A stretch of 64,000 nucleotides of DNA from Myxococcota bacterium (GTDB lineage Bacteria > Myxococcota_A > UBA9160 > UBA4427). The stretch spans positions 1,568,001 through 1,632,000 of the forward strand of contig OZ252299.1 in NCBI GenBank assembly GCA_965250285.1, read 5' to 3'. The position numbers and the translations under genes were made by a program. Of this stretch, positions 3,508-62,396 are shown piece by piece (positions within the stretch are counted from its first letter, which is position 1; every line of letters starts with the position of its first letter). The notes beneath the pieces were generated by a model. That model was not told the origin of the DNA and ran no database searches. It saw only the letters and a list, made by a program, of their open reading frames with translations.

Positions 3508-5214
3508 CTAGAACGAGTACTTGAACTTGAAGAAGGCGCGCTGGTTCTTGCCCCAGCTGCGGATGGGGAAGTCCTCGCCCGGCACGTAGCCGACGAACCC
3601 GAGGGTCGCCGCGAGGCCGTCGATCACGTCGTACGTCACCTCGCCTCGCAGGATCGCGCCGCCCTGACCGCGATAACCGATCACGTACGCGAGGATCGTC
3701 GAGTGGAGCCGCGCGTTCATCCAGTCCTGCGAGATGCGCAGCGCGTACTCGACCTGATTCTCGTCGACGTAGTTCGGGAAGAACTGGAAGAGCGGGTCGT
3801 AGTCGATGATGTGCCGATTGACGACCTCGAGCGCGATCGTCGTGTCGTTGAAGCCGTAGTACTCGAACCCGACCATGGCGTCGACCCGGCCCGAGAGGAT
3901 GCGGTCGACGTCGTAGAATTGCGGGGTGGGCACCGGCTGCAAGAAGACGTAGTCGACGTCCTTGAACCAGGCGAGCTCGGCCTTGAGCAGCCAGCTGCCG
4001 AGCGTGTAGTTGCCGCCGCCTCCGACCATCGTGACGCGATCGTTCTCGAGGACGCTGAGCGCGGCCGCGCCCGGGACACCCGGCGTGAGCGTCGACCGGT
4101 TCTGGTAGATGCGGGCGACGTAGAATGAGACGTCCCAGCCGCTGAAGATGCCTTCGACGGCGCCGCCGTACTCGGGCGCCGATCCCCAGCGCGATGCGCG
4201 GCGGTCTTCGACATCGTCGGGGTCGATCGGTGAGATCAGCGGAGGCCGCGGCGGCGGAAAGTCCTGCGCGGTCGGGAGCACGAAGAAGTCGCTGCCCGCC
4301 GGCGGGTCGTAGTCGTAGCGGATCTCGGGAATCACGAGCGCGGTGAAGCGAAACGGGCCGGCGAAGTAGTCGGCCTTCGCCATCGTGGCGGGCAGCCGCA
4401 GGTTCTCGATGTCGGCGAGCCCGGGTTCGCGGTTGTCGAGCGAGTTGAGGACGTCGGTGACGCGCACCGTGTCGGACCGGCCCCAGTTGACGACCTGACG
4501 CCCGAGCTTGAGGTCGAGGCGCTCGAAGAGCGTGCCGGCGACCCAGAGGTCGAGCACCTCCGATACGAACTCGTAGTTCTTGAGGATCTCGGTCGTGTAC
4601 GACTCGCGACCGTGGATCAGGTAGGCGAAGTCGAACCAGAGAAAGCCCTGGGCCCGCAGCTGCCAGTCGTAGGGCAGATCGGCGTCGATCTGCAGATCGC
4701 CTCGCGTCCGGAGGCGCTGCAGGCCGAAGTAGTCGGTGCCGGCCAGGATCTCTTCGGGGGTGTCGCCCGGACCGATCGACGAGCGGTGCCGAAGCACGTT
4801 GAACGATCCGCCCAGGCTGAGCGAGCCGGACACGTCGTAGAACCGGTCGGCGGGCGCGGACGTCGACGCGCTCGAAGAGGCTCCCAGCTCGCCGAAGCCT
4901 TCGAGCGCCGCCTCGGTGTCGTCTTCCCCGAAGCCATCGAGGGCGGCATCGACATCGTCGTCTCCGAAGCCATCGAGGGCGGCATCGACGTCGTCGTCTC
5001 CGAAGCCATCGAGGGCGGCTTCGGTGTCGTCGTCGAAGCCCTCGAGCGCCGCCTCGGTGTCATCGAGGGCCGCCTCGGGATCCTCGAAGCCCTCGAGGGC
5101 GGCCTCGACATCATCATCGGCCGCCGCCGAGGGCCCGACGGCGAAGCCGATCAGGAGCAGGGCGCTCAACCCGGCCAGGGCGAGCTGCGTGGCCTTCGCG
5201 GGCAGCGAGGGCAT
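3508..5214 (-). CDS. DUF1302-like outer-membrane beta-barrel protein with acidic N-terminal repeats
   Basis: Signal peptide, 'LGRQVVNWGRSD..VTDVLN' motif, amphipathic beta strands, C-terminal 'KYSF'. Co-oriented with a lipoprotein-sorting protein gene. Confidence 0.7.
   Translation of the reverse strand: MPSLPAKATQLALAGLSALLLIGFAVGPSAAADDDVEAALEGFEDPEAALDDTEAALEGFDDDTEAALDGFGDDDVDAALDGFGDDDVDAALDGFGEDDTEAALEGFGELGASSSASTSAPADRFYDVSGSLSLGGSFNVLRHRSSIGPGDTPEEILAGTDYFGLQRLRTRGDLQIDADLPYDWQLRAQGFLWFDFAYLIHGRESYTTEILKNYEFVSEVLDLWVAGTLFERLDLKLGRQVVNWGRSDTVRVTDVLNSLDNREPGLADIENLRLPATMAKADYFAGPFRFTALVIPEIRYDYDPPAGSDFFVLPTAQDFPPPRPPLISPIDPDDVEDRRASRWGSAPEYGGAVEGIFSGWDVSFYVARIYQNRSTLTPGVPGAAALSVLENDRVTMVGGGGNYTLGSWLLKAELAWFKDVDYVFLQPVPTPQFYDVDRILSGRVDAMVGFEYYGFNDTTIALEVVNRHIIDYDPLFQFFPNYVDENQVEYALRISQDWMNARLHSTILAYVIGYRGQGGAILRGEVTYDVIDGLAATLGFVGYVPGEDFPIRSWGKNQRAFFKFKYSF
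4888..5118 (-). repeat. Intragenic coding repeat, about 6-7 copies of (G)DDD(V/T)(D/E)AAL(D/E)GF
   Basis: The ~36-bp unit ccgaagccatcgagggcggcatcgac(a/g)tcgtcgtct is visible in the DNA and in the translation. Confidence 0.9.
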
Positions 5215-8915: not shown

Positions 8916-9037
8916 TCACGCCGAGCTCGCTCGCGCTCGCGCCGATGCCTTTCGCTCTCAGCTCGAGGCCGCTCGCTCTCAGCTCGAAGCCGCTCGCGCT
9001 CAGCTCGAGGCCGCTCGCTCTCAGCTCGAGGCCGCTC
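8916..9037. repeat. 21-bp tandem array copying the 3' end and stop codon of the sugar-reductase gene
   Basis: Unit tcagctcgaggccgctcgctc at 8958, 8979, 9000 and 9021 (the last is the real gene end), with decayed units at 8937 and 8916. Confidence 0.9.
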
Positions 9038-24093: not shown

Positions 24094-24954
24094 TTGCTGA
24101 CCGCGTCGATCTTCCCGTCGGATCGGGTCACGGTGATGGGGGTCGTGAACCTCACGCCGGATTCGTTCTCGGACGGGGGGCGGCTCACGCGGGCGGCGAC
24201 CGGGACCGACGTCGAGGCCGCACTGCGACACGCTGCCGCCCTGGTGGCGGCCGGCGCCCATGTGCTCGACGTGGGCGGCGAGTCGACTCGCCCCGGGGCC
24301 GGTGAGGTTCCGGTCGAAGAGGAGCGAGCGCGCGTCGAGGCCGCGATTCGGGCGCTGGCCGCGGCGGTCGACGTGCCCATCTCGATCGATACGCGCAAGG
24401 CCGAGGTCGCACGCGCGGCCATCGCGGCCGGGGCCGGGCTGGTGAACGACGTCTCCGGGCTGGCCTTCGATCCCGCGCTGGCCGAGGTCGTCGCCGAGAG
24501 CGGGGCCGGCCTCGTCCTGGGCCATGCCCGGGGCACCCCCGACGTGATGCAGAGCCGGGCCGATTACGACGACGTGCTCGCCGAGGTCGCACGTGAGCTC
24601 GAAGTCTCGGTCGAGGTGGCCCTCGCGGCCGGCGTGGCTCGAAATCACCTCGCCATCGACCCGGGGATCGGATTCGGCAAGCAGCTCGATGCCAACCTCG
24701 AGCTGATGGCTCACGTCAGCTGGCTGAAGAGCCGATTCGAACTCCCAGTGCTTGTGGGGCCCTCGCGCAAGGCCTTTCTGGGGCACCTGACCGGCGCCCC
24801 GGTCGACGAGCGCGACGCCGCCACGGCGGAGGTCTGCGCCGTGCTGGCCTTCGCCGGCGCCGACGCGGTGAGAGTGCACGACGTGCGGGGCGCGAGTCGT
24901 GCGGTGAAGCTCGGACGCGCGCTCAAGGACGCGCGCCGCAAGGAGCTGTCGTGA
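24094..24954 (+). CDS. folP: Dihydropteroate synthase
   Basis: 'MGVVNLTPDSFSDGG', 'DVGGESTRPGA', 'SIDT', 'IDPGIGFGK', 'SRK', 'VRVHDV'. Confidence 0.97.
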   Translation: MLTASIFPSDRVTVMGVVNLTPDSFSDGGRLTRAATGTDVEAALRHAAALVAAGAHVLDVGGESTRPGAGEVPVEEERARVEAAIRALAAAVDVPISIDTRKAEVARAAIAAGAGLVNDVSGLAFDPALAEVVAESGAGLVLGHARGTPDVMQSRADYDDVLAEVARELEVSVEVALAAGVARNHLAIDPGIGFGKQLDANLELMAHVSWLKSRFELPVLVGPSRKAFLGHLTGAPVDERDAATAEVCAVLAFAGADAVRVHDVRGASRAVKLGRALKDARRKELS

Positions 24955-25272
24955 TCGAGGTGACCTTCGAAGCCTCGCGTGAGAAGATCGGACGCGCGCT
25001 CGAGGACGCGCGCCGACAGGAGCTGTCGTGATCGAGGCGACCTTCGAAGCCTCGCGTGAGAAGATCGGACGCGCGCTCGAGGGTGCGCGCCGCGAGGAAT
25101 CGTCGTGATCCACGTGACCTTCGAAGCCTCGCGTGAGAAGATCGGACGCGCGCTCGAGGATGCGCGCCGCGAGGAATCGTCGTGATCCACGTGACCTTCG
25201 ACGCCTCGCGTGAGAAGATCGGACGCGCGCTCGAGGGAGCGCGCCGCAAGGAACCGTCGTGATCCAGGTGAT
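24907..25272 (+). repeat. 77-bp tandem array duplicating the folP-stop/cdaA-start junction
   Basis: GTGATC recurs at 24951, 25028, 25105, 25182 and 25259, an exact 77-bp period. Each unit is a 26-codon ORF whose stop overlaps the next start (GTGA). Confidence 0.95.
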
Positions 25273-26143
25273 CCTGAACTTCCTGCGCGAGCTCGCCGAC
25301 TTCTTCAAGGCGAACTTCGATCCGTGGCGTGACAGCGTCGATATCCTGCTCGTCACGCTGGGGATCTACTGGCTGTTGCTGCTGATCCGCGGCACGCGCG
25401 CCGTGCAGATCCTCGTCGGCCTGATCGTCCTGATCGCCCTCAGTCTCGCCTCCGAGCTCTTCCAGTTCGTGACGACCAAGCTGATCCTCGAGAACTTCCT
25501 CGGGTCGGCCGTGTTGATCATCATCGTGCTCTTCCAGCACGACATACGGCGCGCGCTCGCGCGGGTGGGGCGCGGCTTCTTCCCGTCGGTGTCGGCCCAG
25601 CAGGAGTCGCAGCTCCTCGAAGAGCTGGTCCGCGCTGCCCAGTCGCTCGCTGACCGACGCGTCGGCGCGCTGATGGTGATCGAGCGGGAGAGCTCGCTGG
25701 CCGATCAGATCGACGCGGGCACGCCCGTCAACGCCGACCTCAGCAAGGATCTGCTCGAGTCGCTCTTCAATACGAGCTCGCCGCTGCACGATGGCGCGGT
25801 GATCATCCGCGACGGGCGCATCGCGAGTGCCGGCTGCATTCTGCCGCTCACGCTGCGGACCGATCTGCCCGACGGTGTCGGGACGCGTCACCGGGCGGCC
25901 GTCGGCATCACCGAAGAGACCGACGCCGTCGTGATCGTCGTGTCGGAAGAGACCTCGAAGATCGCCGTCGTGATGGGCGGTGAGATGATCCATGGCCTCG
26001 AGGCGCCCGAGCTGCGGCGCGTGCTCTACGACATCATGGCCGGCGATCGGCGAGATCTGCTCGCCGAGAGCGAGTCGGGCGCCCCCGCCGCCGTATCGGA
26101 CATCGACGAAGCCGATGCGCCGGTCGAGCGCACGGCGGGTTGA
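25259..26143 (+). CDS. cdaA: Diadenylate cyclase CdaA/DacA
   Basis: Three N-terminal TM segments, 'FQHDIRRAL', DGA motif 'LHDGAV', RHR motif 'GTRHRAAVG'. Confidence 0.95.
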   Translation: MIQVILNFLRELADFFKANFDPWRDSVDILLVTLGIYWLLLLIRGTRAVQILVGLIVLIALSLASELFQFVTTKLILENFLGSAVLIIIVLFQHDIRRALARVGRGFFPSVSAQQESQLLEELVRAAQSLADRRVGALMVIERESSLADQIDAGTPVNADLSKDLLESLFNTSSPLHDGAVIIRDGRIASAGCILPLTLRTDLPDGVGTRHRAAVGITEETDAVVIVVSEETSKIAVVMGGEMIHGLEAPELRRVLYDIMAGDRRDLLAESESGAPAAVSDIDEADAPVERTAG

Positions 26144-26862
26144 GCGACATGATGCGTTGGTTCCTCAACCTGAGACCCGGCCTGCTGCTGCTGGCGCTGG
26201 CGATCGCCACCTTTCTGTGGGTGATCGCGCACGAGTCGACGAGTGTCGAGCGCACGTTCGACATTCCGGTCGAGCTGCACCGGCTCGACGAGTCGCTGGT
26301 CGTGACCGACCAGAACGTCGATGGCGTGAACGTCCGCGTGATGGGCAGCCGGGCCGCGCTCAACAACCTCGACGAGAAGGGCCTGCGCTACGCGATCGAT
26401 GTGTCGGGCGCGAAGCCCGGCGTCGCCGTGTTCGACGTCGAGCTCTCTCGGCTCGATCTCCCGACGGGAGCCCGCTTCATCAGTCGCTCGCCTGCGCAGG
26501 TCAAGGTGCGCTTCGAGAAGAGTGGCCGGAAGGCGGTGCGCGTGAACCCCGACGTGACGGGTACGCCGGCTCCCGGGTATCACCTGGCTGGTCTCGTGAT
26601 CGAGCCGCAGAAGGTGTGGCTCGCCGGCGCCCGCAGTCAGGTCATGCGCCTCGAAGAGGTCTCGACCGAGTCGATCGACATCGATGGGTTGAAGGACAGC
26701 GAGACGCGCGAGGTGAGGCTCGTGCTGGGCGGAGGCACGCTCTGGGTCGAAGACGACGCGCCGGTGAAGGTGCAGATTCGCATGGAGCCCGACCTGCTGC
26801 CTGATGAAGAGGTGCTGCCGCCGGGTGCGTCGCCGGCCGGTGAAGTGACGGTCGAGGGCTGA
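26140..26862 (+). CDS. cdaR: CdaR/YbbR-domain regulator
   Basis: N-terminal TM 'LLALAIATFLW', YbbR-type beta repeats; lies between cdaA and glmM. Confidence 0.85.
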   Translation: MSDMMRWFLNLRPGLLLLALAIATFLWVIAHESTSVERTFDIPVELHRLDESLVVTDQNVDGVNVRVMGSRAALNNLDEKGLRYAIDVSGAKPGVAVFDVELSRLDLPTGARFISRSPAQVKVRFEKSGRKAVRVNPDVTGTPAPGYHLAGLVIEPQKVWLAGARSQVMRLEEVSTESIDIDGLKDSETREVRLVLGGGTLWVEDDAPVKVQIRMEPDLLPDEEVLPPGASPAGEVTVEG

Positions 26863-26956
26863 CACCCTGTGGCGCGATCCGGGCACTCACCCGGGAGCCG
26901 GACGCCCGGCAGCGCATGCGCAGCAGCGGCGCAATCAATCTGGGGACGAGGAATCG

Positions 26957-28324
26957 ATGGCGGACAAGCGGAAGCTCTTTGGGACGGACGGCGTGCGGGG
27001 CCGCGCCAACGTGCACCCGATGACGGCCGAGATGGCGCTCAAGCTCGGGCAGGCCGTTGCGCATCACTTTCGCGGTCGCGAGCGGGGCCGTCACCGGATC
27101 CTGATCGGCAAGGACACGCGACTCTCGGGCTACATGTTCGAAGACGCCCTCGCGGCCGGCATCTGCTCGATGGGCGTCGACGTGATTCAGGTCGGCCCGA
27201 TGCCGACGCCGGCCTTGGCCTTCCTGACGACCGACATGCGATGCGACGCCGGCGTGATGATCACCGCCAGCCACAATCCGTATCAGGACAACGGCATCAA
27301 GTTCTTCGGCCGCGACGGCTTCAAGCTCGACGACGCCATCGAACTCGAGATCGAACGCATGGTCGAGAGCGGCGAGCTCGAGGGGGCGCGCGCCGGCGCT
27401 GACGAGATCGGCCAGGCCCGCCGCATCGACGACGCCGAGGGCCGCTATGTCGTCTTCCTGAAGAACACCTTCCCTCACGACATCACGCTCGAGGGGCTTC
27501 GGATCGTGCTCGACTGCGCCCATGGCGCGGCCTACAAGGTCGGGCCGACCGTGCTCGAGGAGCTCGGCGCCGAAGTGTTTGCGCAAGGCGTGACGCCGAA
27601 TGGTCGCAACATCAACGACGAATGCGGCTCGCTGCATCCCAACGCGACGGCGAGCCGCGTGCGCGAGGTGCGCGCCGACATCGGCATCGCGCTCGATGGA
27701 GACGCCGATCGGGTGATGATCGTCGACGAGCGGGGCGAGGTGCTCGATGGTGATCTGGTCATCTCGCTCTGCGCGCGCCACCTGATGGAGCGCGGCGCGC
27801 TCAAGGGGGGCGGCGTCGTGACCACGGTGATGAGCAATCTCGGTCTCGAGGAAGAGCTCGAGAAGCTCGGCCTCGCCCTCGTGCGCACGCAGGTCGGCGA
27901 CCGCTATGTCGTCGAGGCGATGCGCGCCGGCGGCTACAACCTCGGCGGCGAGCAGTCGGGCCACGTCGTGTTCCTCGATCACGGCCGCACGGGCGACGGT
28001 CTGATGACGGCGCTGCAGGTGCTCGCGATCCTCGCCCGTTCGAAGAAGCCGCTCTCGGAGCTCGCCGCCGGCTTCAACCGCTATCCCCAGGTGATGGTCA
28101 ACGTCGGCGTATCGACCAAGCGACCGATCGAAGATCTGCCGCGCGTGCAGGACGCGATCGCCGAGGTCGAGGCGAAGCTCGAGGGCCGCGGCCGGGTGCT
28201 GATTCGCTACAGCGGCACCGAGAACAAGGCGCGCGTGATGGTCGAGGGCGAAGAAGAGAGCGATGTGACCGAGTACGCGAACGTGCTCGCTGCGACCCTC
28301 AAGGAGTCCCTCGCCGCCGGCTGA
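26957..28324 (+). CDS. glmM: Phosphoglucosamine mutase
   Basis: 'LFGTDGVRG', 'TASHNP', 'DGDADR', 'GGEQSGH', 'RYSGTE'. Confidence 0.97.
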   Translation: MADKRKLFGTDGVRGRANVHPMTAEMALKLGQAVAHHFRGRERGRHRILIGKDTRLSGYMFEDALAAGICSMGVDVIQVGPMPTPALAFLTTDMRCDAGVMITASHNPYQDNGIKFFGRDGFKLDDAIELEIERMVESGELEGARAGADEIGQARRIDDAEGRYVVFLKNTFPHDITLEGLRIVLDCAHGAAYKVGPTVLEELGAEVFAQGVTPNGRNINDECGSLHPNATASRVREVRADIGIALDGDADRVMIVDERGEVLDGDLVISLCARHLMERGALKGGGVVTTVMSNLGLEEELEKLGLALVRTQVGDRYVVEAMRAGGYNLGGEQSGHVVFLDHGRTGDGLMTALQVLAILARSKKPLSELAAGFNRYPQVMVNVGVSTKRPIEDLPRVQDAIAEVEAKLEGRGRVLIRYSGTENKARVMVEGEEESDVTEYANVLAATLKESLAAG

Positions 28325-30157: not shown

Positions 30158-30620
30158 AACCCAGGCGCTCGGCCAGGCGCTTGGGTCGGTGCTGGCCGCG
30201 GCGCGCGACCGTGGCCTCGTCATCGCCCTCGACGGCGACCTCGGCGCGGGCAAGACCGTCTTCGTGAAAGGGCTCGCGACCGGGCTCGGGGGCGCGGCCG
30301 ATCTCGTGTCGAGTCCGACGTTCGTGATCGCCCAGCGCTACGACGACGGCGCGCTGCGGCTCCACCATGTCGATCTCTATCGGATCGAGGACGAGTCGGA
30401 GCTCGACGGCTTCGGCTTCGACGAAATGCTCGATCCACCCGCGGTGGCGGCCATCGAGTGGTCGTGTCGCTTTCCGCAGGCGTTGCCGCGAGATCATCTG
30501 GCGGTCGCCATTGCGCGCGACGCGAAGGGCGGCGACGACGGGCGATGCCTCGAGGTCGAATCGCGCGGTCCCCGCTCGTCGGCCACCCTGGCGGCCTGGC
30601 GGGCGCGCGTCGCCGTCTGA
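30117..30620 (+). CDS. tsaE: tRNA threonylcarbamoyladenosine biosynthesis ATPase TsaE
   Basis: 'LDGDLGAGKTVFVKG', 'SSPTF', 'HVDLYR', 'IEW'. GTG at 30117 follows AGGGAG. Confidence 0.93.
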   Translation: MSSAHCFRSRSASETQALGQALGSVLAAARDRGLVIALDGDLGAGKTVFVKGLATGLGGAADLVSSPTFVIAQRYDDGALRLHHVDLYRIEDESELDGFGFDEMLDPPAVAAIEWSCRFPQALPRDHLAVAIARDAKGGDDGRCLEVESRGPRSSATLAAWRARVAV

Positions 30621-30781
30621 CTCAGCGCAGGGCGTCGCCGTCGGACTCAGCGCCGGGCGTCGCCGGCTGAATCGGAGCGGCCCACCACGGGCCGATCCGG
30701 CGCGGGGCGTGGCCGTCTGATCCAGCGCGGGGCGTCGCCGGCCGTGTTCGAGCGGGGCGCGACGGGCCCGAGCAACCGCGC
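30607..30781. repeat. 25-bp degenerate tandem array starting at the tsaE 3' end and stop
   Basis: Unit gcgtcgccgtctgactcagcgcagg at 30607, with variants at 30632, 30657, 30707 and 30732 and decayed units at 30682 and 30757. Confidence 0.8.
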
Positions 30782-47052: not shown

Positions 47053-47706
47053 ATGGTCCAGATCAACATGTCGTCCAAGGAGATCACGCTGAAGGTCGTG
47101 TACTACGGCCCGGCGCTCTCCGGCAAGACGACGAATCTGCAGCAGCTGCACGAGCAGATGTCACCGTCGGCCCGCACCAAGATGCTGACGCTGGACACGA
47201 AGGACGACCGCACCCTCTACTTCGATTTCCTGCCCGTGGAATTTTCCACCTCGGGCGGATTCAGCGTGAAGATGAAGCTGTTCACGGTGCCCGGCCAGGT
47301 GATGCACAAGTCGACGCGCAAGGTCGTACTGGCCGGCGCCGACGCCGTCGTCTTCGTCGCCGACAGTCAGCGCTCGAGCGCGAGCGCCAACGCGTACAGC
47401 TGGCGCGACATGGAGGCGAACCTCAAGGCGAACGGGATCGACTTCGAGTCGCTGCCCAAAGTCGTGCAGTTCAACAAGCGCGACTTCCCCGACGTGAAGC
47501 CCTTGAAGGAGATCAAGGAGCAGTGGGGGGACATTCCGACCTTCCCCGCGATCGCGACCCGGGGCGAGGGCATTCAGGAGACGTTCCGCGAGCTGATGCG
47601 GGCGCTCTATCGCTCGCTCGACGAGAAGCACGACTTTGCCCGCAAGTTCCAGGTGTCCGAGAAGGACTTCCTCGAAGGCATCTTCACGAACTTCTCGCCC
47701 GCCTGA
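47053..47706 (+). CDS. MglA-family small GTPase, with no adjacent mglB
   Basis: 'KVVYYGPALSGKTTNL', 'DRTLYFDFLP', 'TVPGQ', 'GADAVVFVADSQ', 'NKRD'. Confidence 0.9.
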   Translation: MVQINMSSKEITLKVVYYGPALSGKTTNLQQLHEQMSPSARTKMLTLDTKDDRTLYFDFLPVEFSTSGGFSVKMKLFTVPGQVMHKSTRKVVLAGADAVVFVADSQRSSASANAYSWRDMEANLKANGIDFESLPKVVQFNKRDFPDVKPLKEIKEQWGDIPTFPAIATRGEGIQETFRELMRALYRSLDEKHDFARKFQVSEKDFLEGIFTNFSPA

Positions 47707-47825
47707 GCGACACCCCGCGCGCCTCTCGCGCCGACCCCCGCCTGAGCGACTCCGGGCGCGTCTCGCGCTGACCCGGCAAGAGCAACACCGGGCGCCTCTC
47801 GCGCCGAGCCCGCCAGACGACCCCG
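47698..47825. repeat. 36-39-bp decaying tandem array starting at the stop of the MglA-like gene
   Basis: gcctgagcgac at 47701 and 47740, gcaagagcaac at 47776, gccagacgac at 47812. The first three are followed by a (c/g)tctcgcgc(c/t)ga motif. Confidence 0.8.

Positions 47826-60636: not shown

Positions 60637-62396
<1,760 letters not shown>

Follow-up and report, generated by a model that had tools for sequence, protein, structure and literature searches.

A relay of short overlapping reading frames between folP and cdaA in a Myxococcota genome: a probable by-product of the local duplication of a coupled gene junction

Introduction

In the genome of a Myxococcota bacterium (called G000 below), a chain of four mini-ORFs of 26 codons stands between folP and the diadenylate cyclase gene cdaA, the stop of each overlapping the start of the next in a GTGA. 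Does such a relay serve cdaA, through its peptides or through the number of its units, or is it left over from a process which has nothing to do with cdaA in particular? We analysed the window, by which we mean the whole stretch of 64,000 nucleotides containing this locus, together with the rest of the genome, related genomes and metagenome contigs.

Results and discussion

The array and its reading frames

On the forward strand of the window one finds, in this order, ftsH, folP, the array, cdaA, a YbbR/CdaR-like gene and glmM. The features are the following.

24094..24954, + strand: folP, dihydropteroate synthase (TIGR01496 over cut-off); its TGA overlaps the start of mini-ORF 1
24907..25291, + strand: the whole array, five copies of a 77-bp ancestral junction (44 nt of folP end and 33 nt of cdaA start), from the repeat and breakpoint analysis
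24940..24945, + strand: ancestral cdaA Shine-Dalgarno (SD) word within the folP end, now ahead of mini-ORF 1 (-8.4 kcal/mol)
24951..25031, + strand: mini-ORF 1 (U1), 26 codons
25028..25108, + strand: mini-ORF 2 (U2), 26 codons
25105..25185, + strand: mini-ORF 3 (U3), 26 codons
25182..25262, + strand: mini-ORF 4 (U4), 26 codons; its TGA overlaps the GTG of cdaA
24979..25332, + strand: a second, accidental GTGA relay in another frame (three times 26 codons, then 40 codons), without SD; internal control
25248..25253, + strand: the present, weakened SD word of cdaA (-5.2 kcal/mol)
25259..26143, + strand: cdaA, diadenylate cyclase, intact (TIGR00159 over cut-off)
26149..28324, + strand: co-oriented downstream genes, a YbbR/CdaR-like protein and glmM

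TRF describes the array by a period of 77, 4.8 copies, 92% identity and 0% indels at 24906-25271, the highest score among its 14 rows in the window. With its head-to-tail units of tens of bases, the array has the architecture of a VNTR (minisatellite). The four ORFs, their coordinates, their translations and their GTGA overlaps are exactly those given by the initial annotation, which had also placed an SD sequence upstream of each unit. SD-like words do lie 5 nt ahead of each start, that of cdaA included, and their duplex energies for U1, U2, U3, U4 and cdaA are -8.4, -7.5, -5.9, -5.9 and -5.2 kcal/mol.

The 77-bp array and its four GTGA-coupled 26-codon ORFs are real. In a single study, three public runs, which may include the source sample, yielded contigs that reproduce the folP-U1, U2-U3, U3-U4 and U4-cdaA joins with zero letter differences. 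An artefact in the assembly of this single-contig genome could be invoked in that no listed contig spans the full array and none bridges the U1-U2 join; since the units differ by substitutions and the unit-specific joins are matched in these contigs, practically no credence can be given to it. Run X4 (share 0.05) holds just short, mainly diverged pieces. No joint skipping a unit occurs in the contigs of the three runs, and the relatives compared, none of them conspecific, have one copy. A CRISPR array or a structured RNA was ruled out: there are no unique spacers, the RNA of the array shows no excess folding (fold z = -0.24) and an Rfam search gave no match on it. No promoter- or terminator-like site was found at the array.

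The relay itself is a matter of arithmetic. Since 77+4 is a multiple of 3, each copied start terminates at the next copied stop, and any copied -4 junction with a period of 3n+2 produces such a relay. One can observe the same in the other frame, where three ORFs of 26 codons (24979-25059, 25056-25136 and 25133-25213) and then one of 40 codons are chained in the same manner with no SD to serve them (-0.7 kcal/mol). This shows that the relay pattern arises mechanically.

Origin of the unit

Each unit is made of the first 33 nt of cdaA and the last 44 nt of folP, the best switch point of a breakpoint scan falling at unit position 32-33; the annotation was thus right in describing chimeras of the CdaA N-terminus and the FolP C-terminus. 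In G001, a genome of the same genus, folP and cdaA are joined by a plain overlap, and the collinear sequence has exactly 308 nt fewer, a number equal to 4 x 77. We examined 29 relatives, 6 of which lack folP upstream of cdaA; in the others (23/23) the start codon overlaps the folP stop and there is no array. Among 65 further loci, which come partly from genomes already present among the 29 relatives, 51 have folP, and an overlap is estimated in 50 of these 51; the three closest metagenome contigs, with a CdaA identity of 83-96%, are among them. The closest relative, L092, with 96% CdaA identity, has an estimated overlap and no array. The 77-bp unit matches a single locus in the whole genome and was found in no other genome or contig examined; an exact search of metagenome contigs with the core of the unit, in which records near the genome itself may be left out, gave 0 matches. 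The annotation had expected a direct overlap with a variable number of units in relatives: the direct NTGA overlap is there, the variable number is not.

Even in the most diverged part of the unit, nucleotides 13-33, 14/21 positions agree with the cdaA start of L092, and a 14/21 match to the cdaA start of G001 is reached by 0.1% of random 21-mers. Divergence within the unit is uneven, being 7-8/21 in nucleotides 13-33 and, for the tail compared with the genome's own folP, 4-8/44. The explanation that we prefer below accounts for this unevenness by edge effects only, which we count against it. By their linked variants, U1 goes with the folP end, and U2-U4 go with the cdaA side. The units are mosaics of folP-side and cdaA-side variants, which suggests a later expansion by unequal exchange or slippage. 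Only four of the arrays of G000 could be mapped to G001 sequence, and that of folP/cdaA is the only one for which a clean single-copy site was obtained. A distant relative, L097, carries at 93-137 a 41-bp duplicate of the folP/cdaA junction, which is independent and provides a clean 14-codon link.

In six family members (L016-L021) there is no folP directly upstream of cdaA, and the upstream sequence resembles the end of ftsH. Another diadenylate-cyclase-like match, more distant with its 35% identity, lies at G000:C1:2951146-2951871. Most relatives have this second match as well, and in several of them it sits at no more than about 10 kb from a type IA topoisomerase match.

A genome-wide class of local duplications

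In the 6.25-Mb genome a lag scan detected 293 clusters of local repeats, whose periods peak at 33-46 and at 70-84 bp. We retained 157 arrays in the bands 31-47 and 70-84 bp, that of folP/cdaA among them. The periods which are not multiples of three number 51 at 31-47, 1 at 48-69, 24 at 70-84 and 2 at 85-106 bp. There is a preferred length regardless of sequence, in the form of two broad bands and not of one sharp size, and the consensus units of the arrays appear unrelated by eye. That the 70-84 band would consist of dimers of the shorter one was rejected for 34/40 arrays, the folP/cdaA array included. Two further arrays of G000 have a period of 119, and a 135-bp x 4 array at G000:C1:5764131-5764670 lies outside both bands, the period 135 being found in four clusters of the genome.

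All of the arrays lying inside predicted genes (37/37) have periods that are multiples of three. The 120 arrays outside genes contain a stop in 74 cases and a start in 21, where the null hypothesis is that both are about equal (p=7e-9); the genes were called by a simple finder of our own, whose starts are less reliable than its stops. Convergent gaps are enriched for arrays (35 vs 16 expected) and divergent gaps are depleted of them (12 vs 33 expected). Overall the arrays are enriched near the 3' ends of genes. There is no leading-strand excess among the stop-bearing genes (39 vs 43). In the window, other arrays are found at or just behind gene ends at 62278-62396, 47698-47825, 30607-30740 and 8922-9037, with periods of 33, 36, 25 and 21/42, and an in-frame 36-bp array lies within a gene at 4892-5065.

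In G001, 9 arrays with periods that are not multiples of three were found in the 588 kb sampled of 5.8 Mb, and 790 kb from 14 other genomes gave 0 where 9.5 were expected, most of these 14 being fragmented assemblies, which can lose repeats; G001 is fragmented too. The size-class trait is common to G000 and G001. Size classes in a ratio of 1:2 are present in two genomes of one genus and were not found in what was sampled of other genera in the family and order, which offers a comparative handle on the origin of new fixed-length tandem repeats in bacteria. As the folP/cdaA array is a member of a class that counts about 150 unrelated local duplications across the genome, an explanation specific to cdaA is not needed.

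Apparent absence of constraint on the peptides

The annotation had pointed out that no unit has an indel or an internal stop, and had suggested that helical peptides could themselves be functional. Compared to the modelled ancestral junction, the pN/pS of the peptides is 0.95-1.5, a value based on 14-20 changes per unit in units which are not independent; against G001, it is 0.22 for folP and 0.06 for cdaA. There is no signal of purifying selection on the mini-ORF peptides (pN/pS ~1), and they are absent from the relatives examined. In simulations, a unit receiving 22-26 random changes acquires no stop with a probability of about 0.5, and in 12-17% of the simulated cases the frame remains open while both its start and its stop survive. 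Moreover, 53 of the 71 comparable arrays of the genome have 0% indels. As pN/pS is about 1, as the open frames are at the level of chance and as indel-free arrays are common, the peptide sequence looks unconstrained, and the clean state of the four frames cannot be taken as a sign of selection. Pfam gave no match for the two peptides scanned of the four. The retention of GTGA is mildly suggestive. From comparisons of this kind, made on sequence, we infer no functional role for the peptides.

An apparent coupling filter across the genome

The annotation had proposed that coupling from folP to cdaA is preserved through the relay; that preserved coupling matters has indirect support from other junctions of the genome. 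We called a junction coupled when the duplicated stop has an overlapping start word and the last copy opens a coding-like gene, and uncoupled when it opens no gene. A one-unit relay is kept by 10 of the 12 duplicated coupled junctions and by 5 of the 15 uncoupled ones (Fisher p=0.012), in a comparison limited to these 12 junctions and to a simple coding test; without the folP/cdaA locus the count is 9/11 (p=0.019). When the gene finder is used instead, 10/13 coupled junctions are obtained vs 5/11 in the control: the binomial test gives p=0.0025, and the comparison with the control is not significant (p=0.12). The 588 kb of G001 contain no duplicated coupled junction, hence the filter is not replicable there. 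This bias supports the view that a duplication persists when it would keep ribosomes passing on; that the array was itself favoured does not follow from it. A junction-length bias of this sort constitutes sequence-only evidence of selected translational coupling in an uncultured lineage.

The nine other relay-forming duplicated stop/start junctions are located on G000:C1 at 3659 (period 80), 582851 (83), 1102877 (35), 1211688 (35), 1337652 (77), 3420752 (80), 4302270 (26), 4687632 (41) and 5104363 (43). One relay, at genome position 5104182, sits at a junction with a -8 overlap. At G000:C1:4774294-4774577, a 79-bp array covers an ATGA junction and its length breaks the one-unit relay; a two-unit ORF of 53 codons and another ORF of 29 codons may still reach the next gene.

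Coupling is described as most efficient at spacings of -4 to +3 and as lost with distance (PMC12548453). The same source reports reduced coupling at spacings to about +40 nt, one study with little or none above 30 nt, and one study of artificial constructs with some coupling out to hundreds of nt (PMC12548453). Since coupling falls with distance and since Rho is present in the genome, an untranslated gap of 304 nt before cdaA-cdaR-glmM would plausibly be costly. The weakening of the cdaA SD from -8.4 to -5.2 kcal/mol fits either a reliance on restarts or drift.

Explanation of the array and its rivals

We consider it probable that the mini-ORF relay is a tolerated by-product, under a coupling filter, of a lineage-specific tandem copying of a coupled junction. 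One old duplication of the folP/cdaA junction would have been produced by the genus-wide process which makes 31-47 and 70-84 bp repeats; the unconstrained half of each copy would then have drifted during a long period, before a later expansion via unequal exchange or slippage. Ribosomes would cross the predicted mini-ORFs by stop-and-restart and would be passed on to cdaA. A length which keeps the relay would spare cdaA-cdaR-glmM the 304-nt untranslated gap, so that the duplication would not be purged, and duplication lengths which break the relay would mostly be purged. It counts against this that cdaA retains a usable SD, so it may have a start of its own.

If cdaA does start from its own SD, the array could be a neutral spacer, the relay being irrelevant and the fit of the frame a 1-in-3 coincidence. 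The ease with which the pattern arises, seen in the accidental second relay, the cdaA SD which still pairs at -5.2 kcal/mol, and the decay of the U3, U4 and cdaA SDs all agree with this; yet relay-keeping lengths are in excess at the coupled junctions of the genome, which speaks against it together with the independent case of L097, and we find it unlikely. The fact that L097 duplicated the folP/cdaA junction independently can also be cited in favour of a selected rheostat, where each restart would shed ribosomes, and where the number of units and the decay of the SDs would lower or tune the output of CdaA and of c-di-AMP. The SDs do become weaker from U1 (-8.4 kcal/mol) to cdaA (-5.2 kcal/mol), and c-di-AMP levels are described in the literature as tightly balanced. 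We nevertheless hold a rheostat to be quite improbable, for the closest relatives have no array, nine unrelated junctions of the genome carry the same kind of relay, and no copy-number variant exists among the contigs of the three runs (this last point being weak evidence). The tuning of CdaA by copy number, which the annotation had put forward, is unsupported: as a regulator of cdaA the array matters little, and the evidence favours a tolerated scar. As for 26-aa peptides that would function, for example, by binding FolP, CdaA or GlmM, the four frames are all open and the peptides are similar and charged, but with a pN/pS of about 1, with open frames expected by chance and with no such peptide in any relative examined, this is very improbable.

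Comparison with known repeats

A mycobacterial interspersed repetitive unit (MIRU) of 77 bp is known at senX3-regX3. MIRUs resemble our array in that they are described as short intergenic repeats containing an ORF that couples to the following gene at -4, with expression little disturbed; they differ in being apparently mobile, inserting at start codons, whereas the folP/cdaA unit copies its own flanking genes (PMC12548453). The identical architecture, coupled to the target gene with -4 spacing, would be the reason for supposing that our array entered the start of cdaA as a mobile repeat of the MIRU type or as the scar of an integration. The array does possess the -4-coupled internal ORF, but it is neither a member of an interspersed family nor foreign to its site: it exists at a single locus of the genome, and the local sequence explains the whole unit. 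We can scarcely entertain such an insertion; the array works like a MIRU but is none.

The constant-length, variable-sequence bacterial repeats described by Subirana and Messeguer likewise comprise many unrelated sequences of preferred lengths in some taxa only (PMC8161180, PMC6749651). In Bacillus these are reported as sharp classes of 20-21 and 52 nt, in families with shared motifs (PMC8161180, PMC6749651), whereas the bands found here are broad (31-47/70-84, in a ratio of about 1:2) and located at gene 3' ends, and the arrays that were inspected are local copies. The duplication mutator topA R168C of E. coli is described as making de novo head-to-tail duplications independent of existing repeats, as here, the difference being that their lengths are 2-19 bp (PMC6954433). 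We found no link of the arrays to TopA, the single TopA-like enzyme being present also in array-free relatives. Termination-reinitiation coupling at NTGA overlaps (PMC12548453, PMC6728339) is the mechanism that the relay would use, with five consecutive restarts where ordinary coupling has one. Neither locally derived junction relays nor 31-47/70-84 bp size classes turned up in the open-access literature that we searched.

Candidate causes of the duplications

Microhomology amounts to 0, 0, 1 and 3 bases in the four perfect two-copy arrays of 33-84 bp, and to 4-9 bases in 8 of 10 such arrays with periods of 18-30 bp; these numbers are small, and rows with partial extra copies were excluded from them. 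The low microhomology at 33-84 bp suggests that the first duplication was not due to plain slippage. Both members of the genus have matches to MutS, MutL and PolA (those to MutS and MutL being partial in G001). Neither G000 nor G001 gave a match to Ku, reverse transcriptase or the histone fold; SSB and Rho are present in 5/5 genomes tested. Cas1 is present in G000 and in the array-free G018, and was not found in G001, which is 83% complete. A single type IA topoisomerase is a state common to the array-free G002, G013 and G023. Among the repair and chromatin genes tested, none distinguishes the genus from its relatives.

One can tentatively imagine, as a possibility that we find rather doubtful, that the genus has a ruler-like duplication process advancing by about 38 or about 77 bases per step, with almost no microhomology and a preference for gene 3' ends. 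The length of the step would come not from slippage but from the footprint of a protein complex bound to DNA, for instance SSB, a nucleoid protein or an RNA polymerase at termination, with paired nicks made around it, and the surviving junction copies would display a ribosome relay through up to five consecutive restarts. Were this reading true, these copies would amount to a natural genome-wide assay of ribosome relay. What sets the 38/77-bp step is a question worth more than the cdaA relay.

Some minor observations can be added on the genes just mentioned. The sole type IA topoisomerase of G000 (G000:C1:385781-388630) is TopA-like; it has cysteine-rich motifs and ends in a long tail rich in Lys and Ala. 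The lag scan detects no repeat-spacer array in the 40 kb surrounding the cas1 match of G000 (G000:C1:3245666-3246523), and a CRISPR-like repeat-spacer array is found in a family member (L072:9874-10833, in G005).
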